DNA of 64,000 nucleotides from assembly GCF_963921235.1 (NCBI RefSeq), contig NC_086097.1, forward strand, positions 78,556,001 through 78,620,000, in the 5' to 3' direction. Every line of letters begins with the position of its first letter. Position 1 is the first letter of the stretch. A model generated the notes under the pieces. The model was not told the DNA's origin, ran no database searches, and saw only the letters and a list, made by a program, of their open reading frames with translations. This DNA comes from Mobula hypostoma. Lineage: Eukaryota. Positions 1-60,146 of the stretch are shown in pieces. The position numbers and the translations under genes are program-made.

Positions 1-1070
1 CTATAAAAGAATCACCAAAACTGTACAAAGTGCTCCAAGTGTAGCCTCATTAATGACTTATATAACATAGTATCGCAACTCCTATTCTCAGTGCCCTGAC
101 TGATAAACACCAGCGTGATAAATGCATTTTACACAACCCTGTCTACTTGTGAAGCCACTTTCAACAAACTATGTACCAAGTCCCTCTGTCCCATTACACT
201 CTGTATAACCCTACTTATCATCACATAAATCCTACATGTTTAAATTTTCCAAAATACATCAACCCGCATTTATCTGCATTGAAATCCATTTGCCGCTCCT
301 TGACTGTCTTCCCTTCCTGATCAAGATCCCCTTAAAATTATTTTAAGGTTACATTTATCTGTCGCATGTACATTGAAACATACAGTAAAATGCGTTATTT
401 GAATCAATGATCAACAGGGTCCGAGGATGTGCAAGAGGCAGCCCACCAGTGCTTTCATGCTTCCGGCACCGACACAGCAATCCCACCACTTACTAACCCA
501 AACGTGTACACCTTTCGACTATGGGAGGAAACTGGAGCACCTAGAGGGAACCTGTGCAGTTATGGGGAAAACATACAAACTCTTTACAGAGAGCAGCGTG
601 AATTGAACATGGGTTACTGAAACTGTAATAGTGTCAGTAACCACCACACTACCATGTTGCCCTCCTGTAATCTTCGATAACCTTCTTCACTATCAAAATC
701 TCTTAATTTTATGTCATCTGCAAGCTTCCTGATCAAGCTTTATGCATTCATATCCAAGTCATTGATATAAATAACAAATAACAAGGGTTCAATCACTGAT
801 TCCTGCAACATACCACTAGTCATCAATCTCCATTCGAAGAAACAAATTTCAAACAACACCCTCTGCTTCTTACCTTTCAGACAACTTTGAATCTACCTAA
901 CTACCTCTCTGTGAATTCTTAGGCTATGCTGGACCCTATCAAAGGCTTTGCTTAAGTCCTGATAGATAACATTCACTACTCTACCCTCGTGTACCCTTTT
1001 GGCTACCTCTTCAAAGAATTTGTCAAACACAACTTTATGTGCATAAAGCGATGCTAACTCCTTCAGCAGG
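1..1070 (-). mobile_element. Decayed CR1-clade LINE ORF2 (RT) fragment, interrupted by a SINE at ~345-662
   Basis: Minus strand resembles the CR1 RT of the clearer copies in the window (e.g. tcatctgcaagctt as the KFADD region, tcaaaggctttgcttaagtcc as the DFSKAFD region). No intact ORF; ends approximate. Confidence 0.7.
345..662 (-). mobile_element. tRNA-derived SINE (V-SINE-like)
   Basis: Reverse complement begins gggcaacatggtagtgtggtgg (A-box-like), has a B-box-like ttcaattc and the core tgctccagtttcctcccatagtc, also seen at 25668 and 35545. Confidence 0.6.
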
Positions 1071-2107
1071 TTTTATAAATCAGCTGATCTGTACTGGTAA
1101 CTAAGACCCCGCAGCAAATTATATAGTTTTTTAGTCAATGGTACAAACAATAACGTTCAGAACCCTATTTCAAAGGAAATGTTGGCTTCTGTAAAATAGA
1201 TTAAGCCGATTGCTTTGGCATTTGATTAAAATGTTGCAAGGCAACTTATCAAAATCATACAAATTCCCAGAGGCATTTCTGTCTCCAAAAAGAACAAAAA
1301 ACTATATCCTTTCTATACTTTCTCTATGTAGTAAGCTATTCGAATTCCTAGACTTCTATTAACATTGCATTATTACAAAAAATATTCTGTTTTTCTTTAA
1401 ATTTTATTTCTTTTGAGATTTTAGATAAACAATAATTCTTTGCCAGGACTGGAAAATTTTTCTTGCCAACAATTTAGCCCAAAGGTGGAAAGTACGTTCC
1501 AGCTCCAATAAGATAAATACACACCGCAAGTCACCAGAATGCTGATTCCCATGAATTTTTGGCAAGTTAAAAGGCAAATGCAATACAAATCCAAATATGC
1601 CAAAAGAATATCACTCAGAAAGAAATACTAAAAAGTTATTGCAATAAAAATACTTCCATTCTCTACAATGTTTATTTACAATCTTATTATATTGTAACAA
1701 TGTAGAGGACATTTTAAACTCATCCACCCATCTTGCACCCAAATGCAAGATTGGGAAGAATATAAGGTAGATATCTGATCTTATTTAAAGCTTCTCTTTG
1801 ATGCTGGCAGTATGAATTTGTCAATATGATTGATTCCCGTTTCTCTCCTGAAATAACATCAAAATCATATCAAAACTGCTACTACATGAACTGAAATGGT
1901 TCAAGAAGATGGCTTACTACCATCTTCAAGATTAATTAGGATAGACTCCCACATCCATTTTGTGATGGAGCAACTGATGAGTGTAAGCAAAAGAAACAAT
2001 GACATTCATCACTGGATGGTGAAATCTGTGCTTCACATAGTAAAGCAACACACATCAAAGTTGCTGGTGAACGCAGCAGGCCAAGCAGCATCTATAGGAA
2101 GAGGCGC

Positions 2108-2143
2108 AGTCGACGTTTCAGGCTGAGACCCTTCGTCAGGACT
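2108..2143 (-). ncRNA. Minimal type I hammerhead ribozyme (left pseudo-LTR)
   Basis: Minus strand reads AGUC-CUGACGA-AGGGUCUCAGCCU-GAAAC-GUC^GACU: both catalytic boxes, stem I AGUC/GACU, short stem II, palindromic ACGU stem III. Confidence 0.8.
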
Positions 2144-2435
2144 AACTTTAGGAAGAGTGAGTAAGGGATTTGAAAGCTGGAGGGGGAGGGGGAGATGCAA
2201 AATGATAGGAGATGACAGGAGGGGGAGGGATAGAGCCGAGAGCTGGACAGGTGATAGGCAAAAGGGGATACGAGAGGATCATGGGACAGGAGGTCCGGGA
2301 AGAAAGACGGGGGGGGGTGACCCAGAGGATGGGCAAGAGGTATATTCAGAGGGACAGAGGGAGAAAAAGGAGAGTGAGAGAAAGAATGTGTGCATAAAAA
2401 TGAGTAACAGATGGGGTACGAGGGGGAGGTGGGGC

Positions 2436-3719
2436 CTAGCGGAAGTTAGAGAAGTCAATGTTCATGCCATCAGGTTGGAGGCTACCCAGACGGAATATAA
2501 GGTGTTGTTCCTCCAACCTGAGTGTGGCTTCATCTTTACAGTAGAGGAGGCCATGGATAGACATATCAGAATGGGAATAGGATGTGGAATTAAAATGTGT
2601 GGCCACTGGGAGATCCTGCTTTCTCTGGCGGACAGAGCGTAGATGTTCAGCAAAGCGGTCTCCCAGTCTGCGTCGGGTCTCACCAATATATAAAAGGCCA
2701 CATCGGGAGCACCGGACGCAGTATATCACCCCAGTCGACTCACAGGTGAAGTGATGCCTCACCTGGAAGGACTGTTTGGGGCCCTGAATGGTGATAAGGG
2801 AGGAAGTGTAAGGGCATGTGTAGCACTTGTTCCACTTACACGGATAAGTGCCAGGAGGGAGATCAGTGGGGAGGGATGGGGGGGACGAATGGACAAGGGA
2901 GTTGTGTAGGGAGCGATCCCTGCGGAATGCAGAGGGGGGGGGAGGGAAAGATGTGCTTAGTGGTGGGATCCCGTTGGAGGTGGCGGAAATTACGGAGAAT
3001 AATATGTTGGACCCGGAGGCTGGTGGGGTGGTAGGTGAGGACCGGGGAACCCTATTCCTAGTGGGGTGGTGGGAGGATGGAGTGAGAGCAGATGTACGTG
3101 AAATGGGGGAGATGCGTTTAAGAGCAGAGTTGATAGTGGAGGAAGGGAAGCCCCTTTCTTTAAAAAATGAAGACATCTCCCTCATCCTAGAATGAAAAGC
3201 CTCATCCTGAGAGCAGATGCGGCGGAGATGGAGGAATTGCGAGAAGGGGATGGCGTTTTTGCAAGAGACAGGGTGAGAAGAGGAATAGTCCAGATAGCTG
3301 TGAGAGTCAGTAGGCTTATAGTAGACATCAGTGGATAAGCTGTCTCCAGAGACAGAGACAGAAAGATCTAGAAAGGGGAGGGAGGTGTCGGAAATGGACC
3401 AGGTAAACTTGAGGGCAGGGTGAAAGTTGGAGGCAAAGTTAATAAAGTCAACGAGTTCTGCATGCGTGCAGGAAGCAGCGCCAATGCAGTCGTCGATGTA
3501 GCGAAGGAAAAGTGGGGGACAGATACCAGAATAGGCACGGAACATAGATTGTTCCACAAACCCAACAAAAAGGCAGGCATAGCTAGGACCCATACGGGTG
3601 CCCATAGCTACACCTTTAGTTTGGAGGAAATGGGAGGAGCAAAAGGAGAAATTATTAAGAGTAAGGACTAATTCCGCTAGACGGAGCAGAGTGGTGGTAG
3701 AGGGAAACTGATTAGGCCT
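2436..3719 (-). pseudogene. PLE RT-GIY-YIG ORF, left arm (5'-truncated; a local frameshift is compensated downstream)
   Basis: ORF 2436-3737 contains QTKGVAMG, RYIDD, a Cys linker CKWNKCYTC and GVIY...YIGET. A segment after NRVP is out of frame relative to the right arm. Confidence 0.9.
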
Positions 3720-3729
3720 AGGTGTAGCT

Positions 3730-4902
3730 ATGGGCACCCGTATGGGTCTTAGCTATGCCTGCCTTTTTGTTGGGTTTGTGGAACAATCTATGTTCCGTGC
3801 CTATTCTGGTATCTGTCCCCCACTTTTCCTTCGCTACATCGACGACTGCATTGGCGCTGCTTCCTGCACGCATGCAGAACTCGTTGACTTTATTAACTTT
3901 GCCTCCAACTTTCACCCTGCCCTCAAGTTTACCTGGTCCATTTCCGACACCTCCCTCCCCTTTCTAGATCTTTCTGTCTCTGTCTCTGGAGACAGCTTAT
4001 CCACTGATGTCTACTATAAGCCTACTGACTCTCACAGCTATCTGGACTATTCCTCTTCTCACCCTGTCTCTTGCAAAAACGCCATCCCCTTCTCGCAATT
4101 CCTCCGTCTCCGCCGCATCTGCTCTCAGGATGAGGCTTTTCATTCTAGGACAAGGGAGATGTCTTCATTTTTTAAAGAAAGGGGCTTCCCTTCCTCCACT
4201 ATCAACTCTGCTCTTAAACGCATCTCCCCCATTTCACGTACATCTGCTCTCACTCCATCCTCCCACCACCCCACTAGGAATAGGGTTCCCCTGGTCCTCA
4301 CCTACCACCCCACCAGCCTCCGGGTCCAACATATTATTCTCCGTAACTTCCGTCACTTCCAACGGGATCCCACCACTAAGCACATCTTTCCCTCCCCCCC
4401 TCTCTCTGCATTCCGCTGGGATCGCTCCCTACACAACTCCCTTGTCCATTCGTCCCCCCCATCCCTCCCCACTGATCTCCCTCCTGGCACTTATCCGTGT
4501 AAGTGGAACAAGTGCTACACATGCCCTTACACTTCCTCCCTTATCACCATTCAGGGCCCCAAACAGTCCTTCCAGGTGAGGCATCACTTCACCTGTGAGT
4601 CGACTGGGGTGATATACTGCGTCCGGTGCTCCCGATGTGGCCTTTTATATATTGGTGAGACCCGACGCAGACTGGGAGACCGCTTTGCTGAACATCTACG
4701 CTCTGTCCGCCAGAGAAAGCAGGATCTCCCAGTGGCCACACATTTTAATTCCACATCCCATTCCCATTCTGATATGTCTATCCACGGCCTCCTCTACTGT
4801 AAAGATGAAGCCACACTCAGGTTGGAGGAACAACACCTTATATTCCGTCTGGGTAGCCTCCAACCTGATGGCATGAACATTGACTTCTCTAACTTCCGCT
4901 AG
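3730..4902 (+). pseudogene. PLE RT C-terminal half, Cys-rich linker and GIY-YIG endonuclease (open 390 aa; N-terminal RT missing)
   Basis: RYIDD catalytic motif, FLDL, YYKPT, IPFSQFLRLRRICS thumb, CKWNKCYTC, GVIYCVRCSRCGLLYIGET...RFAEH...GMN. Confidence 0.92.
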
Positions 4903-5194
4903 GCCCCACCTCCTCCTCGTACCTCATCTGTTACTCATTTTTATGCACACATTCTTTCTCTCACTCTCCTTTTTCTCCCTCTGTCCCTCTGAATATACCT
5001 CTTGCCCATCCTCTGGGTCACCCCCCCCCGTCTTTCTTCCCGGACCTCCTGTCCCATGATCCTCTCGTATCCCCTTTTGCCTATCACCTGTCCAGCTCTC
5101 GGCTCTATCCCTCCCCCTCCTGTCTTCTCCTATCATTTTGCATCTCCCCCTCCCCCTCCAGCTTTCAAATCCCTTACTCACTCTTCCTTCAGTT

Positions 5195-5230
5195 AGTCCT
5201 GACGAAGGGTCTCAGCCTGAAACGTCGACT
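5195..5230 (+). ncRNA. Minimal type I hammerhead ribozyme (right pseudo-LTR); predicted cleavage after C5226
   Basis: AGTC CTGACGA AGGGTCTCAGCCT GAAAC GTC GACT. It lies ~290 nt after the ORF stop and ~100 nt before the element end. Confidence 0.82.
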
Positions 5231-5539
5231 GCGCCTCTTCCTATAGATGCTGCTTGGCCTGCTGCGTTCACCAGCAACTTTGATGTGTGTTGCTTGAATT
5301 TCCAGCATCTGCAGAATTCCTGTTGTTCACATAGTAAAGGATAGGTTCTAGGAAAAGGCTTGCCATGGCCATAGTACTCTGGCATTCCTATTGGAAAATT
5401 CTGTTAGGTAGGTTCAACTACTTTGTGGTATGTTGCAAAGTATATACGAACACAGTAAATGAGGCAAACACTAATCACAGAGTAAAACAACATTTTCAAG
5501 TGTCAATGAAGACCTGGAAGTGAAATGGAGGAACTATTT

Positions 5540-5727
5540 CAGAAGTGGTTGAGGCACGTTCGATGTTGTCATTTAAAGTTAAATTGGACAGCTATACGGA
5601 CAGGAAAGGAATGGAGGGTCATGGGCTGAGTGCAGGTTGGTGGGACTAGGTGACAGTAGGAGTTCGGCACGGACTAGAAGGGCCGAGATGGCCTGTTTCC
5701 ATGCTGTAATTGTTATATGGTTATATA
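5540..5727 (+). mobile_element. Short CR1-type 3' end
   Basis: gtggttgaggca...catttaa...gaagggccgagatggcctgtttccatgctgta followed by a short repeat tail. Confidence 0.55.
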
Positions 5728-6519
5728 TTTCATTTTTCTATGGAATGTACAAAAATGACCAACCTTGGCAAAGCAGGCTAGTGACAATGATTTACTGAGA
5801 TTTACTTACTCTTTAAAAGATATAATAAGGGAGTTGTAGCTTTACGAGTAGATAGCGCAGAATTAAAAGAAAATTTCACCAACAATATGAAAGACACTGC
5901 AGGAATTTACACCAAAGTTTCACTCAGGGATATCTAGTGTTTTGAAAGATATTTTTGAGTAGTGGAGCATCAGGCAATGGAAAGCAAGTAATGAAGATAT
6001 TAGATGATTTTTGGGCCTTTTTTGTTTTATGTTTCAAATGCCGTTATAAGTTCACTTTAAATTAATCAGGAACTGCAATACCCAATTATTTTCTGCAAAT
6101 CTTATTTTCTAACAAAAAGTTTTAGAAATATCTGGGTGAGGGAATAGAATTTTTATATTCCAATATGGAATATCCTCAGTTTTCTATTATTGATATGAAA
6201 TATGTTTATTAGCATTCCTCTTTTTAAATTTATTTTAACCTTTTATGCTTTCACAAAATTCAATTCAATTACTAACTTCATTTAAAAAGTAAAATCCCAA
6301 GTATTCACAAGACACTGCCAAATATTTAAGTATTTCCTTTTGTTTTTCTTCAATCAATTGTCTAACCCAATTTTGAAAATAGTTATGTCCCAAGATTGCT
6401 GTATTTTGAAAAATGTTTGCTTTGTTCTACTCTCCAGAATCGTTATGACTGAGCTATTTAGGCCTACAAGCTTGATTTAACTATAGTTGAGAGCATACAA
6501 GCTTGATTTAACTTTAGTT

Positions 6520-6808
6520 GAGGGTTGAGGACACAGTTTTAAGGTGCTTGGAAGTAGGTACAGAGGAGATGTCAGGGGTAAGTTTTTTTTTTACGCAGAG
6601 AGTGGTGAGTGCGTGGAATGGGCTGCCAGCAACAGTGGTGGAGGCAAATACAATAGGGTATTTTAAGAGACTCCTGGGTAGGTACATGGAGCTTAGAAAA
6701 ATAGAGGGCTATGGGTAACCCTAGGTAATTTCTAAGGTAAGAATATGTTCAGCATAGCATTGTGGGCCGAAGAGCCTGTATTGTGCTGTAGGTTTTCTAT
6801 GTTTCTAT
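6520..6808 (+). mobile_element. CR1 LINE 3' end
   Basis: FFTQRVVSAWNGLP ORF2 C-terminus, 3' UTR and GTTTCTAT tail; same family as 58231-59327. Confidence 0.8.
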
Positions 6809-7869
6809 AACTCTGCTATGATTGCTTTCCAAACTCTTGCCTTTGGCCCATATTCCTCAACACTTTTGATGAACAAATGCAATTCATTCAGCACCATGAG
6901 ATGATCTGCGTGAGGTCAAAACAAATGTGAAAGGTAACGTTCTCCAAAAGGGAAGATATTCAGATATATGAGTGACACTTCCACTGCATTGGACTCAGCA
7001 GAGGAACAGTGACTTGTTGAAGAGAGATTTTGGATACACCTTGCATCAGGACCTGTTTTATGCGAGAAAGGGAGGGCAGCTGAACAAAGATACCATTAAT
7101 TTGTCCAAAATTGCAGTTAACTGCTTTACAAATATTACTTTATATCACTTTGTTTCTAATTATTTGTTGTTGTATTTTAATTAAATGGATTTTTTCATTT
7201 AACTGATTTAATTTATCTTGAAAATATATTCTATCAATTTGAATAGCTGGTAAATGTCCATGATTAAAATCTGTTAAAAATGTTTTTGACAGCTAACTAA
7301 GTGACAATAGCTATCAGGAGATGGGAAACCAAGGTAAGATACTTCAGAGCAAGTCATCAACTCAAATACCATCTGGATCTGGCAAAAGTGTATGCAGAAA
7401 GGGTCCCCAGTTGACATGTACAACCAGTGGACTAGATTCAATTTGATTCAATCCATTTGCCCATATAAAATTAAAATTTCATGTTATGTACTGTCTTTTC
7501 TCTGACTTACGATAAGCCACAACATAAGTCATCAGGCATTCTACAACCCTATTGTACAAACTGGGGTGAGATAAGTGAGTGATAGCACATTCACTGCTGA
7601 AAATTTTTACTTTATTTTGTTTAGAGATACAGGAAGGAACAGGCCCTTCCGGCTCACTGAGCCGTGCCACTAGGTAACCCACTGATTTGCACAGTTTGTT
7701 GTCTTTTGCATACAGTATTGGTTTTATATCTAGTCAGTGCAGTCTTTCATTGATTCTATTATGGTTATTGGGTTTATTAAATTTGCTCACAAGAAAATGA
7801 ATCTCAAGGTTGAATATAGTGACATTTATGTACTTTGATAATAAATTTCCTTTGACCCTTAAACCTTGT

Positions 7870-8640
7870 GAGGTCAGTTATGGTCAGAATCAACTCCTAC
7901 TTAAGCAAGGACCTGAAACCACTGTAATTTGCCTATTACCAGAATAGGTTTACAGCAGATGCAGTCTCACTCTGAATTCGATCCTTGGACAATAGCAAAA
8001 CCTACATCAAGCTGCTATTTATTGGTTACAACTCAGCATTCAATACCATCAAATCCTCAATACTAATCAAAAAGCTCCAAAACCTGGCTCTCTGTACCTG
8101 CCTCTGTAACTGGATCCTTGACTTCCTCATTGGGAGACCACAGACAATACAGTTCTCAAATAAAATCTCCTCTACAACACTGCTCTACTTTCTCTATACC
8201 TACAACTGTGTGGCTACACAAAGTTCAAACCCCATCTATAAATTTGCCCAATGCTTATTAGCTCAGTTTCAGATGGTCAAAGAGGCATACGGGAGTGAGA
8301 CAGATCAGCTGGTTGAGTGGTGGTATCACAACAAAACCCTTGCACCCAATGCAAGACCAAGGAACTGATTGTGGACTTAAGGAAGGGGAAGTCGAAGGAA
8401 CATATACCAGTTCACTTCGAGGGATCAGCAGTGAAAAGGATGAGCAGTTTCAAATTCTTGGGTAATCAACGTCTCTGAAGATCTATTCTGGGACCAACAT
8501 ATTGATGAAATTACAAATAAGGCATGACAGCAGCTATATTTCATTAGCATTTTGAAGAGAATTGGTACGTCATCAAAGACATTTGCAAATTTCCAGAGAT
8601 ATACCAGGGAGAACATGTTATTATGTGTGTACATAATAAA
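7870..8640 (+). mobile_element. Decayed Rex1/Babar-like LINE RT fragment
   Basis: ORF 7985-8368: KLLFIGYNSAFNTI, LCNWILDFLIGRPQ, IYKFA. Confidence 0.75.
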
Positions 8641-8724
8641 GAACATCAGTTCCCAGTGTGCAATGCAGGCCGTTCACCAGAAACCAGATGTGACATTGGG
8701 GAGCTAGTCTCATGCACTCAGGTT

Positions 8725-11150
8725 CTAGTCCTTTTGAAATAGTCCTTACCACTGACTCAACCTGCAAATTAACCCTTAGGGAATCCTGCTCAAGAAACCA
8801 CAAGTTCCATTGCACCTCTGATTTATGAATTTTCTCCCCATTTATAAAATATTCCACAGCTTTATTGTTTCTGCCATAGCATATGACCATGCACTTGCCT
8901 ACACTATATTATGTCTGCCACTTCTTTGTCCATTTCCACAAACTGTCTAAGTCCTTCTGCAGACACCTTGCTTCCTCAACACTACCTTCCCCTCCACCTA
9001 TCTTCATATCATCCACAAACTTGAACACAAAGCCATCAATTTCTACATCCAAATCATTGACATATTTCATGAAAAGAAGCAGTCCCAACACCAACCACTG
9101 CATCACACCATTAGTCACCGACAGACAACCATAAAAGACCCCCTTTGTTCACACATTTTGCCTCCTGTCAGTCAGCCAATCTTCTATCCATACTAGTCCC
9201 TTTCCTGTAATATCATGGGCTTTTATCTGGCTTAGCATGCTCACATGTAGCACCTTGTCAAAGGCCTTTTGAACATTCAAGTAAACATTAGCCACTGACT
9301 CTCTTTTGTCTGTCCTGCCTTTTATTTCCTCAAAAACTTCCAACGGATTTGTCAGGCAAGTTTTCCCACTGAGAAAACTGTGGTAAACCATATATATGTT
9401 GTAACTGGGTTACCTGTCTGGACACACCCCTCTGCTGACTGCTCCTGTGGCTCCTCCCACAGACCCCTGAATAAAGGCCACTGTGCCATTGCTCCTCCTC
9501 TCAGTCCAGGGGCAGATACTCAGCATGGTGGAGGTCACATTTTACTGCTAATAAAAGCCTTTCAGTATTTACTCTACTTCCAGTCTTTTGGAGTTATTGA
9601 TAGTGCATCAGAAACCAAGCTGACTATGTCCTATTTTATCATGTGACAAGTACCCTGAAACTTCATCTTTAATAATAGACTCCAACACCTTCCCAACCAC
9701 TAAGATCAGGCTAACTGGTTTATAGTTTCCTTTCTTTTGCTTCCCTCCCATCTTAAAGAGTGGAGTAACATTTGCCATTTCCTGGTCCTCAGGAACCATT
9801 TCAGAATCTAATGATGCCTAAAAGATCATTACTAATGCCTCCACATTCTTTTCAGCTACCACTTTCAGAACACACGAGCATAAGTCCATCTGGTTCAGGT
9901 GACTTATCTACCTTCAAACCTTTCAGCTTCCCAAGTACCTTCTCCTTAGTAATAGCAGTTACATTCATTTCCATTTCCTAACACTCTCAAATTTCTGGCA
10001 TTATTATTAGTGTCTTTCACAGTGCACACAGATGCAAAATACTAATTAAGTTTGTTTGCCATTTCGTTATCCCCCATTACTATCTCTCCAGCACCATTTT
10101 CCAGCAGTCTAATATTCACTCTCTCTTTTATTCTTTATATATTTGAAAATAACTTTTTGTATCCTCTTTTATATTATTGTCTAGCTTACCTTCATATTTC
10201 ATCTTTCTCCCCTTATTGCTTTTTAGTTGCCTTCTGTTGGTTTCAAAAAGCTTTCCAATCCTCTAATTTTGCACTAATTTTTGCAGTACAAATATGTATT
10301 ATATGCCCTCTTTTTTTAATGCTTGCTTTGACTTCCCTTGTCTGCCACGGTTACCTCATCCTCTCTTTAGAATACTCCTTCACTTTTGGAATGTATTTTT
10401 CCTACACCTTCTGAATTGCCCCCAGGAACCCTAGCCATTTCTGTTCTGCTGTCATCTCTTCTAGTATCCTCTACCAATCAACTTTGGCCAGCTCCTCTCT
10501 CATGCTTCTGTAATTCCCTTTACCCCACTGTAATTCTGATACATCCAATTTTAGCTTCTACTTCTCGCATTGCAGGATGAATTATGTCACATTTTGATCA
10601 CCAGCTCCTAAGGGTTCCTTTACCTATGCTCCCTAATCAAATCTGGGTCATTACATAACACCCAATCCAGAATTTCCTTTCACCTAGTGGTCTCAACCAG
10701 AAGTTGGTCTGGAAAGCAATCTCATTGGCATTCTAAAGCTTCCTTCTCTTGGGATCCAGCACCATCCTGATTTCCCCAATCTACCTGCATATTGAAATCC
10801 CCCATGATTATCGCAACATTGAACTTTTTACATGCCTTCTCTATTTCTCATTGTAATTTGGAGCTTACATCCTGACTACTGTTCTCAGGTCTGTATATAA
10901 ATCCCATCAGGGTCTTTTTATCCTCACAGTTTCTTAACTCTACCCACAACAAGTCTACATCTTCCGATCCAATGTCACTTCTTCCTAAGAATTTGATTTA
11001 ATTTTTTAACCAACAGAGCCACCACACTGATTCTGCCTATCTGCCTGTCCTTTCGATATAATGTGTATCCTTGGATTTTAAGTTCCCAACTATGATCTTC
11101 TTTCAGCCATGGCTCAAAGATGCCCACATCATCATACCTGCCAATTTCAT
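8725..11150 (-). mobile_element. Decayed CR1 LINE ORF2 (APE-RT), with a solo LTR nested at 9379-9610
   Basis: Minus-strand ORFs: GYTLYRKDRQ, NVTPLFK...NYKPVSL, KAFDKV, KFVDD. Confidence 0.85.
9379..9610 (+). mobile_element. Short solo LTR (232 bp)
   Basis: TG...CA termini (TGTGGTA...TGCATCA), internal AATAAA, flanks AAAAC/GAAAC (5-bp TSD with 1 mismatch). It interrupts otherwise contiguous CR1 sequence. Confidence 0.7.
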
Positions 11151-11154
11151 ATAG

Positions 11155-11550
11155 AAAAGATTTACCAGGATTTGCCCAGACTTGGGGGCCTGAGTCACAA
11201 GGAGAGATTGTGTAGATTTGGGGTTTTATTCCCTGGCAGGTGGTAGATGGAATGGTGACCAAATAGGAGATCATGAAGAAGATAGACATGCTGAAAGTGC
11301 ATAGTATTTTTCCCAGGAAGAAGGCATAGGTTCAAGAACAGAGGCGAGCGATTTAAAAATGGACATCAAGGGAAACTTCTTCATGCAAAAAATGATGAGT
11401 ATTTGGAATGAGCATCTAGAAATAGTGGTTAAGGTGAGCATACTGGCAGCATTTAAAAATGGGCAGATGGGACTCATTCTCTGGGCCACACTGTTGGTAT
11501 GAACAAGTTGCGTCAAACAGCCTGTTTCCATGCTGAGTGACTATGGCTAT
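11155..11550 (+). mobile_element. Old CR1 3' end
   Basis: tttaccaggat...aacttcttcatgcaaaaa...tggaatgagc...cctgtttccatgctg pattern. Confidence 0.55.
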
Positions 11551-12419
11551 GATTTAGTCAACTTTATGTTACTGGGCACCAGCAACTTCCTTAGTAACTA
11601 TCTACTACAACCAATATGGTTTGACCCATTATAATTAGGGAGAGACAGAAATTAAGAAAACAAGTTTGGCAAATTTAATATTTTTCTGATTATGCAACAA
11701 GCAGAGGAGGCATAAAAGGCACTGGATCAACCTAGATTTTATTGAATGAGGGAGACAGCTTCATGATCGTAAAGCCTACCGTAGTTGTTCTTTCTTGAGA
11801 GAGCTCATTCACAACTTTTCAAGACCATGCAGCAACAGATAAAATACCCTATCTTTCCAGTAACCCTACTTTTTATATAAATTTTCTATACTTTCCACTG
11901 AGAAGGAAGTCACTCAGCACACTGACTCAATGTTAACCCTCAAACCATGCCATGTTGTTGTAATCATTGAAATGGAACAAATTTTAATGACAATAAACAT
12001 TGAAAAATTTAACTGGTCATCCAGGCTCTTGGAGCAACTGTTAGTAACTCAATCAAATGAACAGACCTCAGCTTTTGAGAGAATGAACACTAAAGTAGAG
12101 CTGAGAACATAGCTTTTATGCTAAGTTCATCAAGTTCTCTTATTTTTATTTATTTAGAGATAGAGCACAGAACACGCCTTTCCTGCCCAACTAATCGCAC
12201 TGCCCAGCAATCCATCTGTTTAACTCTAGCCTAATCACAGGACAATATACAATGACCAATTAACTAGTATATCTTTGGACTGTGGGAGGAAACCAGATGA
12301 TCTGGATGAAACCCAAGCTTTGCAGAACTTTCTCAAAGATAATTATAAAGGTAATTACAAAAGATAATTTTAAAACATAATGTACAGTCAAATGCGAAGC
12401 ATTTTCATTTATTTTTCGG

Positions 12420-21479: not shown

Positions 21480-23097
21480 GAGGAAAGGAGGGAGGGGGGA
21501 CACAGGGGGAAGTAATAGGCAGGTGAGAAGAGGTAAAGATTTAGACTGGGGCATAGAGGAGGGGGAGTTTGTTTACTGGAAGGAGAAATCGATATTTGTG
21601 CAGTCAGGTTGGAGGCTACCCAGACAGACAAGGTGTTGATCCTCCACCCTCAGGGTGGCCTCATCTTGGCACAAGAGGAAGCCATGGGCCAACATGTCGG
21701 AATGAGAATGGGAATTGGAATTAAAATGTTTGGCCACTGTGAAGTTCCGCTTGTGGCGGATGGAATGGAGGTGCTCATTGAAGCAGTCCCCCAGTTAATG
21801 ACAGGTCTCACCAGTCTAGAGGAGGCCATGTTGGAAGCAGGGGACACATTGGATGACCCCAGCAGCTTCGGAGGTGAAGCGTTACCGTATCTGGAAGGAC
21901 TGTCTGGGGCCCTGATTGGAGGTGAGCAAGGAGGTATATGGGCAGGTCTGGCACTTAGGCTGCTTGCAAGGAAAAGTGCCAGGATGGAGATTAGGGGGAG
22001 GGATGGACGGACAAGGAAATCGTGCAGAGAGCAATCTCTGAGGAAAGCTTTAGGGGTGGGATGGGGAGGTAAAGCTATGTCTAGAGATAGGATCCCTTTG
22101 GAGATGGCGGAAGTTGCAGAGGATAATGTGTTGGATGCAGGGGCTGATGGGGTGGTACGTAAGGACAAGAGGAACCCTCAAATTGTTAAAGTGGCAGGAA
22201 GATGGGTGAGCACAGGTGTTCCAAAACTGGAGGAGGTGCAGGGAGGGCAACATCAATAGTAGAAGGAGGGAAACCCTGTTAGCATCAATAGTAGAGGGAG
22301 GAAAATATCGCTCTCTCCACGATTCCCTTGTCTAATCATCCCCCCCAGCATGATCCCTGCAAGTGGCCTAAGTGACACACCTGTCCCTACACCTGCTCCC
22401 TCACCTCCATTCAGGGCCCCAGGCAGGTGAGGTAACACTTCATCTACGAACCTACTGTGGTCGTCTATTGTGTCCGATGATTGGTGAGACCCGTTGTAAA
22501 TTGGGGGACCACTTCATCGAGTACCTCCACTCCATTAGCCACAAGTGGAACTTCTTGATGGCCAAAACATTTTAATTCCCATTCCTATTTCATTCCAGCA
22601 TGTTGGTCCGTGGCTTCCTTTTGTGCCAAGATAAGGCAACCCTCAGAGTGGAGGAGCAACACCTTATATTCTTTCTGGGTAGTCTCCAACCTGTTGGCAT
22701 GAATATTGATTTCTCCTAATGGAAAACAAATTTCAGCCCCCCCCCCCATTTCCCACTCTAACCCTTCACTTTCTCACCTTCCTATTACTTCCCCCTGGGT
22801 CCCCTCCTCTTTCCCTTTTTCCTATAGCCCGTTGTCCTCTCCTATCAGATTCCTTCTTCTCCAGGCCTTGACCTTTCCCACCCACCTGGCTTCACCTATC
22901 ACCTTCCAGCTCGCGTCCTTTTTCTTCCCCCACCTTTTTATTTTGGCATCTTCCCCCTTCCTTCTCAGTCCTGAAAAAGGGTCTTAGCCCAAAACATCAG
23001 CGGAATATTCATTTCCAGACCTGCCTGACCTGTTGAGTTTCTCCAGCATTTTGTGTGTTGCTTTGGGTTACCAGCACGTGCAGAATTTCTTGTGTTT
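21480..23097. mobile_element. Older Penelope-like element, again as an inverted pair (minus arm ~21480-22270, plus arm ~22305-23097)
   Basis: Minus arm reads RVPLVLTYHP. Plus arm reads IGETRCKLGDHFIEYL, then a decayed hammerhead (22967-23002) and the tail ccagcacgtgcagaatttcttgtg. Confidence 0.85.
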
Positions 23098-40410: not shown

Positions 40411-40864
40411 ACAACTAAGAGGTAGAAAGAATTCAAGATATAAAAGGTGCTTGGGGCAGAGAGCAGAAACTGGGTATTAAGATACATGATCAGCTATAAT
40501 CAAACTGAATTATCATCGCAAGCTTGTGAAGTTCAATTGTCTCCTTTTTATGTTTTTATGTTTCTATAATTCCTTGGATAAGGAGGTTGTTCTGAAAGGA
40601 GAGGTTGAATAGTCTAGGTCAATATTCCCTTGCGTTTAGAAGAATGAGAGACAATTGCATCGAAACATTTCAAATTCTTCAAAGGCTTGGCAGGGTAGAT
40701 CTTGCAGGTTGTTTCCTATGGCCAAGTCTGTAACTCAGAATCAGTATTTAAACCCAAGTTGAGGAGAAATTTCTTCAAAAAAGTGCTCAATGAGAGGAAG
40801 GCAATGCAAAACTGTAAAGAGTCAGTGCCATCAGAAATTTGAGTCAACTTTTAATTTTTATTAA

Positions 40865-41965
40865 GTGTACCGCACACAAGATGCTGGAAGAACTTAGCAG
40901 ATATGACAGCATCAATGGAGAGGAATAAAGTCAACGTTTTGGGCCAAGACCCTTCATCCAGAATGGAAACAAAGGCGGAAGAAGCCAGAATAAGAAGATC
41001 GGGGTGGGGGGGGGAGACAGTAGAACCTGAAAGGTGATAGGTGAAACAGATAACGGGGAGATGGGTAGGTTAGTGGGTCGGGGAGGGGGATTAAGGAAGG
41101 TGAAAGGTGGAGGTGGTAAAGGGCCGAAATAGAAGGAATCTGATAGGAGAGGAGTGTGGACCATGGGATAAAGGGAAGGTAAAGGGCAACAGAGGAATGT
41201 GATGGGCAGTTGATGAGGAGAAGGGGAAAAGGGGAGCCAGAATGGAGAATGAAAAAAAGAGACAAGGGTGTGGGTGCAGAAATTATGGGAAGTTAGGGAA
41301 ATCGATGTTCATACCGTCAGGTATAGGCAATCCAGATGGAATGAGGAGTCGTGAGTATGGCTTTATTGTGGCTGCAGAGGAGACCATGGCTGACATATTG
41401 GAATGGGAATAGGACTGGGAAGTTGAATAGAAATGAGTGGCCTTTGGGAAATCCTGCCTTTTGTGACAGACAAGCAAAGGTGTTCAAGGGTGGCTTTCCA
41501 ACTAACATCCGGTCTCATCAATGTAGAGGAAGCCACACTGGGAGTACTGGATACAATAACTAACCCCAACAGACTCACAGTGAAGTGTCACATCACCTGG
41601 AAGCATTGTTTAGGATGCCGAATACTGACAAGGGAAGACATGTAGAACTTGCTCCACTTGCAGGGATAAGTGCCAGTGGGGAGGAACAAATGAACAGGGA
41701 GTCACATAGAGTGTGTTGGAAGACTTGTGGTCAGCAAGCCCAATACCATCACATGAGAAAAAAGAATATTATTTTTACAAGAGACAGAGTGGAAAAAGGT
41801 ACAGTCAAAATAACTGTGAGAGCCAGTACATTTATAAGAGATACCAGTAGATAGTCTGTCTCCAGAAATAGAAACAGAAAGATCAAGAAAGGGGAGAGAG
41901 GTGTCAGAGGTGGACCAAGTAAGTGACAAGAGGGTGGAAGGTTGATGCAAAGATGCTGAAACTCA
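40865..41965 (-). mobile_element. Decayed Penelope-like element, single arm
   Basis: TWSTSDTSLPFLDLSVSISGDRLST, PDGMNIDFPNF and a decayed hammerhead at 40929-40964. Confidence 0.85.
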
Positions 41966-44873: not shown

Positions 44874-45188
44874 AAGCAACCCACACAAAATGCTGGTGGA
44901 ACTTAGCAGGCCAGGCAGCATCTATGAATGATTTCACTGATCAACCTCCCAGCTCTTTACTTCACCTCTCCCCGTCTTCCAGTTTCATCTATCATCTACC
45001 ACCTTGTACTTCTTCCTCCCTCCTCCTAACTTCTTACTTTGACTTCTCATCTTTTTTTCCAGTCCTGACAAAGGGTCACGGACCAAAACATCGACTGTTT
45101 ACTCTTTTCCATAGCTTGCAGAGTTCTTCCAGCATTTTGTCTGTGTTGCTTTGGATTTCCAGCAAATGCAGATTTTCTCATGTTTGTG
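44874..45188 (+). mobile_element. Mini Penelope-like insertion (short inverted arm plus pseudo-LTR with a decayed hammerhead)
   Basis: TSD AAACCAC(C/A)TTCTAA at 44862-44875 and 45189-45202; left arm aagcaac..cacaaaatgctgg; hammerhead remnant 45061-45096. Confidence 0.8.
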
Positions 45189-60086: not shown

Positions 60087-60146
60087 TTCACCAGCAACTT
60101 TGATGTATGTTGCTTGAATTTCCAGCATCTGCAGAATTCCTGTTGT
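60087..60146 (+). mobile_element. 60-bp terminal fragment of the young PLE family
   Basis: 59/60 identical to 5267-5326; TSD CTTTGTCTATCCT at 60057-60069 and 60147-60159. Confidence 0.88.

Follow-up and report, generated by a model that had tools for sequence, protein, structure and literature searches.

The analysis makes it probable that positions 5195 to 5230 (plus strand) of the window, the whole 64,000-nucleotide stretch of DNA studied here, hold a conserved minimal hammerhead from the pseudo-LTR of a young PLE, that the hammerhead would be cut only slowly after C5226, and that cutting would need either two motifs paired through their ACGU palindromes or the element protein, the RNA that is copied into new insertions being likely uncut. 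As a PLE motif it is ordinary, and the value lies in the insertion statistics. The family would be a test bed, as it offers open-frame copies, near-identical motifs numbering more than 56,000, a sharply placed candidate start of the RNA, and two end sites that are fixed. It would suit study of hammerhead cutting in vivo and of head-to-head and tail formation, which are left open in the accessible portions of three earlier papers (PMC4209133, PMC8557442, PMC11167929).

Anatomy of the hammerhead motif

AGTCCTGACGAAGGGTCTCAGCCTGAAACGTCGACT is located at 5195-5230 on the plus strand, with exactly the letters given in an earlier note, which had described a hammerhead with stem I, both cores, and a loopless palindromic ACGU. 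The sequence and a minimal-hammerhead descriptor agreed on that description. Stem I pairs 5195-5198 with 5227-5230 (AGUC/GACU, 4 bp) and is followed by the core CUGACGA (C3 to A9, 5199-5205), an unpaired extra base after A9 (A5206), and stem II (5207-5210 with 5215-5218). The GAAA core (G12 to A15.1) occupies 5219-5222 and overlaps the loopless palindromic ACGU of stem III (5222-5225), in which C15.2, G16.2, and U16.1 are 5223-5225. The GUC (NUH) triplet lies at 5224-5226; C17 is 5226, and the cut is predicted to fall after it. Both cores, the NUH triplet, and the type I topology with a 4-bp stem I are therefore all found in this stretch, as is a trait of PLE hammerheads, an unpaired base after A9 followed by a paired G10.1 (A5206 and the G5207-U5218 wobble).

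The descriptor matched the window at two places, 5195 (+) and 2143 (-), and matched nothing in 300 first-order Markov resamples of the 64-kb window. The minus-strand match is a second, identical motif at 2108-2143, overlooked in the earlier note, in an inverted arm of the same insertion. The earlier note had proposed both a descriptor search, which thus recovered the motif, and an Rfam search, which returned no hammerhead family among five matches at E up to 10 over window positions 1-12000.

The earlier note had also given stem II 3 bp. The helix stands, and that register does not: a 4-bp register with A5206 unpaired (G5207-U5218, G5208-C5217, G5209-C5216, and U5210-G5215) is preferred because its energy is lower (-6.0 versus -4.6 kcal/mol) and because the two bases common at 5218 among 190 arms (41 C and 146 T, with 3 other) both pair with G5207, whereas C could not pair with A5206. 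The 10.1-11.1 pair is G.U, not G-C, in the 5195-5230 copy and in most young copies, whereas position 11.1 is usually C in PLE minimal hammerheads. The lowest-energy fold of the 36-mer is an inactive hairpin in which the core GACG pairs with CGUC (-10.0 kcal/mol, z-score of -0.97), and so folding energy by itself gives the motif no support. The energy of the ACGU duplex is only -1.7 kcal/mol. Lunse et al. have reportedly addressed hammerhead dimer cleavage.

Minimal hammerheads of this class were already described, as the earlier note had said. Cervera and De la Pena (2014) found them in fish elements of the Xena, Poseidon, and Neptune types; monomers were inactive, and dimers showed weak activity (PMC4209133). 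As far as the available text of that paper goes, our motif resembles its minimal hammerheads in being type I with a 4-bp stem I, an extra base between 9 and 10.1, G10.1, and a loopless palindromic 15.1-16.1, and also in its pseudo-LTR location, its many solo copies, and its nearby opposite-strand pairs. It differs in having a 4-bp stem II, compared with 7 to 8 bp in the Schistosoma families, and in copy number, with 56,248 near-identical copies compared with about 4,000 in coelacanth and about 9,000 in Xenopus. No cartilaginous fish is named in the portion of PMC4209133 available to us. One chondrichthyan genome is covered in the accessible part of a preprint (bioRxiv 10.64898/2026.07.22.740005), and related work, likewise seen in excerpt, includes PMC6765202 and PMC13725137. 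Searches of literature titles, with subscription papers mostly outside their scope, returned nothing on this family, on a short/long asymmetry this close to obligate, or on stem I as a start site.

The element family and conservation of its motif

A 31-nt pattern built on the motif had 56,248 matches in the 3.48-Gb genome, and its reversed control had none. A 140-aa reverse transcriptase (RT) piece was 100% identical in all 150 matches scored (150 of 48,027 candidates). Among 20 long loci, the partial tandems L043 and L044 have a frame that is open over 1043 codons, and their motifs are separated by 3514 and 3519 nt. The motif occurs in both repeats of the tandem copies L043, L044, L053, and L056, which is the pseudo-LTR location. 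These findings, together with a best named homologue in the bamboo shark Chiloscyllium punctatum (72%), bear out the earlier proposal that the pseudo-LTR of a vertebrate PLE with recent mobility holds a minimal type I hammerhead. The bamboo-shark homologue also makes a cartilaginous fish the likely host. A non-LTR retrozyme, which would consist of short tandem noncoding hammerhead units, was rejected: this element is coding and arranged head to head, with no tandem array.

The protein P0001 carries, in one frame, RVT_1 (E of 3e-05) plus, at its C terminus, GIY-YIG (E of 0.00038), both just under the Pfam cutoffs. Between RT and endonuclease (EN) lies CKRNKCYTC, of the CX2-5CxxC type, and GVIYCVRCSRCGLLYIG is a two-cysteine CxxC inside GIY-YIG. 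By this cysteine pattern, and under the definition in the available part of PMC8557442, the family would be a Neptune/Nematis-type PLE; the tentative choice of Neptune over Nematis is based on host range. The traits of EN+ PLEs are all present: partial tandems, an inverted truncated partner, a one-sided tail, and target duplication. Inverted truncated partners and one-sided tails were reported before (Craig et al. 2021, PMC8557442; Arkhipova et al. 2013, PMC3846280), and in the parts of these papers at hand the EN+ Neptune and Nematis units likewise show partial tandems, an adjacent inverted 5′-truncated copy, target duplication, a tail often at one end only, and a CX2-5CxxC linker before GIY-YIG.

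A chance match or an assembly artifact can be given practically no weight. The lack of an Rfam match and the folding z-score of -0.97 are what it would predict, but the genome-wide count against its empty control, the 300 resamples without a match, the presence of the family in contigs of runs from other organisms, and the structure of the window insertion, with 19 differences between the arms over 1576 columns and a 14-bp duplication at its borders, all go against it.

To gauge conservation, an older subfamily with 1,160 pattern matches in the genome was compared with the young one, using 30 older loci chosen by their flanks and aligned with 12 young copies. Modal bases were equal at 34 of 36 motif positions, and both differences were CpG C>T changes. 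Agreement in four upstream blocks, which are pyrimidine rich and hard to align, was 10/35 (directly 5′ of the motif), 27/40, 12/60, and 25/60, and downstream it was 26/36, 19/29, and 28/32. Since the downstream sequence is also fairly conserved, part of the constraint may stem from a promoter or from protein binding. Within the young arms, common variation in the motif is confined to CpG sites and to C/T at 5218, a change that keeps the pair. Conservation across the family, which the earlier note had made a check on its reading, was thus found, but covariation was not, as no compensatory change occurs within the young family. Among flank-anchored copies, 61 of 73 retain the cores and 47 of 73 match the full descriptor. 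Contigs of runs from three other organisms and one close holder of the family had many loose ends at both motif edges; inside the motif, among the rows listed, only 5218 and one CpG exceeded 10%.

A search for longer stems II gave 1,572 matches in the genome and 907 in the control. Among 30 of these loci, recurrent repeats had stems II of 6 to 8 bp after one extra base, with differing stems I, and these other hammerhead-like repeats retain the cores, the extra base, and ACGU. A PLE frame was nearby at L196 only.

These comparisons bear on a rather improbable alternative, in which the hammerhead-derived motif no longer cuts and is kept as an internal promoter, a splice signal, or a protein-binding fold at the RNA 5′ end. 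It would fit the pile-up of 5′ ends at the first bases of the motif (below), the inactive hairpin as the lowest-energy fold, and the fixation of G.U in place of G-C in the subfamily with the most copies. An internal promoter has been reported for Drosophila Penelope (PMC2377424), and catalytic mutants had no effect on insertion in vitro (PMC11167929), as far as the available text of both papers goes. Yet the catalytic positions, both stems, and the palindrome are all retained in two subfamilies with diverged flanks, and unrelated stems preserve the fold in other repeats, which argues against this alternative.

Some side observations concern these and other motif copies. The genome has at least three further hammerhead-like families with longer stems II (L187, L191, L196, and L201; L184, L198, and L204), and for these a parent element was mostly absent within 1.5 kb. 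In two short pairs, G000:C1:2811794-2811941 and 3964942-3965093, the arms share rare changes inside the hammerhead, one of them at G8; either a template with a dead motif was copied or the arms were later homogenized. The upstream repeat of the tandem L053 has older-subfamily alleles just past the motif, and its downstream repeat is young.

Copy ends around the predicted cut

Ends of genomic copies were compared with the predicted cut position. The 3′ ends of 292 arms fell into two groups, with 133 at +57 to +76 (short) and 142 at +94 to +107 (long), and a single end of the 292 lay 10 nt or less from the cut. Breaks between 5209 and 5244 were picked up in 3,793 copies by a masked search, and 95 of the 100 copies listed were analyzed. 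Of their 5′ ends, 3/95 were at 5227, one of which looks by eye like an internal deletion, and 1/95 at 5226, against an average of about 2 per position, a result compatible with up to a roughly twofold excess at the cut; 12 nonindel rows at 5209 lie on the mask edge, and microhomology leaves 8 rows at 5223-5224 ambiguous. No start at the cut was seen among 10 tandem copies, and in a nearly unselected sample 94 of 100 listed copies extended through the site (by eye). Most of the pairs and breakpoints sampled lie in the first 110 Mb of a single contig, and the masks enrich for short copies. In these samples, genome copies bear no mark of cutting, which suggests that element RNA is mostly copied without being cut.

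The Poseidon element PAc of Anolis carolinensis offers a biochemical comparison (Frangieh et al. 2024, PMC11167929). According to the accessible part of that study, the PAc ribozyme depends on the element protein, the substrate is mainly uncut RNA, cutting and extension take place on both strands, and two internal start sites flank the tail. The present family is like PAc in that two end sites past the ribozyme bound a tail of 30 to 40 nt, targets are AT rich, and ends at the cut site are lacking. It differs in several respects: a CX4CxxC linker is present, element ends match the target by 1 to 2 nt, more than permuted controls do, and no part of the motif falls within the frame, with 144 nt from predicted cut to likely ATG in tandem full-length copies, whereas the PAc cut is 26 nt into the frame. 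In this genome the short/long asymmetry is close to obligate, and PAc in vitro showed no strand difference.

In contrast to the cut site, the first bases of stem I accumulate 5′ ends

With a second mask, 6,053 of 55,587 motif-intact copies were broken between 5170 and 5199. Ninety-nine were analyzed, 6 of which were indels; among the other 93, 76 started at 5190-5199, with the mode (33 copies) at 5195-5196. Genome-wide, roughly 15,000 copies, or about 28% of motif-intact copies, would start at 5190-5199 (plus strand), a rough figure that applies a mask pass rate of 0.30, the host rate. Without masking, 11 of 30 loci started at 5167-5199 (by eye). Starts in the pile-up adjoin the target duplication or the inverted arm. 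The interval 5190-5199 is likely the RNA 5′ end, judging from where copies begin. Under the initiator rule, a start A follows a pyrimidine, and A5191 and A5195 are each preceded by one. An extra G, as might derive from a cap, was present in 7 of 16 cases at 5196, which gives no clear signal. Alternatively, the pile-up could reflect exonuclease trimming back to stem I.

Splicing of an upstream exon to the AG at 5195-5196 was considered and rejected: no long foreign piece was found in the 47 of 80 copies that could be judged (duplication of at least 11 bp), of which 13 adjoin the duplication, 27 adjoin the inverted arm, and 7 have 4 to 17 nt of filler. Separately, positions 5177-5196 contain a branch-point-like CTCAC, a pyrimidine tract, and two AG dinucleotides (5191-5192 and 5195-5196) directly before the core; the older subfamily likewise has a pyrimidine tract and AG at 5195-5196. 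A Drosophila virilis intron ends at helix I, according to the available text of PMC4209133.

The same ends and the tandem copies bear on a circular template, which we regard as unlikely. Here, tandem transcripts would be cut efficiently, the 3.5-kb unit would be ligated into a circle that serves as the productive template, and copying around it would regenerate partial tandems, as proposed in the accessible text of PMC4209133. Absence of run-off at the cut is expected under this scheme too. The hammerhead-to-hammerhead unit of 3514 to 3519 nt, the 7 of 10 tandem copies in which the upstream part begins upstream of the likely RNA start, and the common alleles of the upstream and downstream repeats in L043, L044, and L057 also fit it. 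A circle has no 5′ end, however, yet about 28% of motif-intact copies begin at 5190-5199. L056 spans from 5190 through the whole unit to the long end, like a linear uncut RNA, and the repeats of L053 carry different alleles.

Head-to-head insertions and their geometry

Both hammerhead motifs of the window belong to one 3.3-kb head-to-head PLE insertion with a 14-bp target duplication (2032-2045 and 5326-5339, plus strand); the last 3 bases of the left copy and the first 2 of the right copy also fit the element end. The right arm (3720-5327, +) is a 5′-truncated PLE comprising the C-terminal part of RT, the Zn-finger linker, GIY-YIG, the 3′ UTR, the hammerhead, and a long end with tail. Its open frame (3712-4902, +; 396 codons from stop to stop, with the stop at 4900-4902) runs from the RT remnant to GIY-YIG. 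The 32-nt tail (5296-5327, +) is found on this arm only, between the two end sites of the family, the short one at about +65 and the long one at about +102. The left arm (2043-3719, -) is a 5′-truncated PLE in opposite orientation that reaches about 104 nt further at its 5′ end and has a short end without a tail. The arms are 98.8% identical (1557 of 1576 columns) and have three variants in common that are absent from all others of about 50 young segments. The 5195-5230 motif lacks a same-strand partner at the locus because its partner sits in the inverted arm, and a transcript across the locus would be expected to carry one sense and one antisense motif. The window hammerhead is a passenger in a truncated insertion.

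This geometry recurs across the family. One short and one long arm end were found in 127 of 131 head-to-head pairs (all 353 sequences) and in 84 of 87 pairs of an earlier set (binomial P of 1e-21). Where a pair had a target duplication of at least 12 bp, it measured 13 to 15 bp in 60 of 66 cases (67% AT). Element ends matched the target by means of 1.1 and 1.5 nt, compared with 0.4 and 0.7 nt when permuted. Arms within pairs mismatched at 2.0%, compared with 6.4% in permuted pairs, and agreed at subfamily sites in 66 of 69 cases versus 29 expected. Among pairs that resemble the reference at 95% or more, sites with a roughly even split among young copies agreed in 25 of 26 cases (13 expected) and in 24 of 24 (12 expected). 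Rare variants were shared by both arms in 15 instances and unshared in 166. Later gene conversion between arms could partly explain the agreement. Near-obligate short/long ends together with a common arm haplotype point to one RNA primed twice.

A pair of separate RNAs held together through the hammerhead ACGU, with two templates per particle and one per palindrome arm, is very doubtful. Head-to-head pairs are indeed very common, and the palindrome permits intermolecular pairing, but the match of arms at evenly split sites and the private variants shared by the window arms argue against two templates, and two RNAs alone would not force one short and one long end.

Self-priming was also considered. 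In the available text of PMC3846280, self-priming on an antisense template is the explanation given for head-to-head copies. In the present family, the tailed arm reached further 5′ in 27 pairs, less far in 47, and equally far in 10 (n = 84); the 47 pairs with a 5′-shorter tailed arm could not arise by simple fold-back, and fold-back self-priming of the tailed cDNA was rejected. A template jump across the motif gained no support: linkage across the motif was no lower than inside the upstream block (77 arms). Solo copies also exist: 26 of 107 unpaired arms had a duplication measuring 10 bp or more, 19 of them long ended and 7 short ended.

A mechanism with uncut RNA can be proposed from these statistics. 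Transcription would likely begin near the first stem I base (5195). The element protein would nick both target strands, 13 to 15 nt apart, and two cDNAs would be primed on the same RNA, at about 65 and about 102 nt downstream of where the cut is predicted. Both would extend past the motif and be joined head to head, forming the palindrome. By analogy with the literature, occasional cutting might trim about 32 nt off the RNA 5′ end or free a 3.5-kb unit. In a fuller version, which we put forward only tentatively, the genome would preserve a large-scale record of PLE insertion: RNA beginning at the first base of the hammerhead would be copied uncut and primed twice by an asymmetric protein dimer (one nick invariably near +65 and the other near +102), tiny copies would be run-off "strong-stop" products, and the 32 to 36 nt of hammerhead common to both RNA ends would allow cDNA to move to the 3′ repeat, yielding long copies and regenerating pseudo-LTRs; a circle made by the ribozyme could have the same effect.

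Other PLE remnants occur in the window. A 60-nt solo end fragment of the same family (60087-60146, +), 98% identical, has the long end without a hammerhead and is flanked by 13-bp direct repeats with a short filler. An older head-to-head pair (21583-22239, -; 22339 to about 23100, +) is 68 to 72% like the young family, and its plus arm terminates in a decayed hammerhead with C at 11.1. More old PLE fragments lie at about 40850-41952 (-), with a decayed hammerhead, and at 44874-44925. Many dispersed repeats, 60 to 88% identical, occupy 6599-64000; some have RT-like frames that resemble remnants of CR1/L2-type LINEs.
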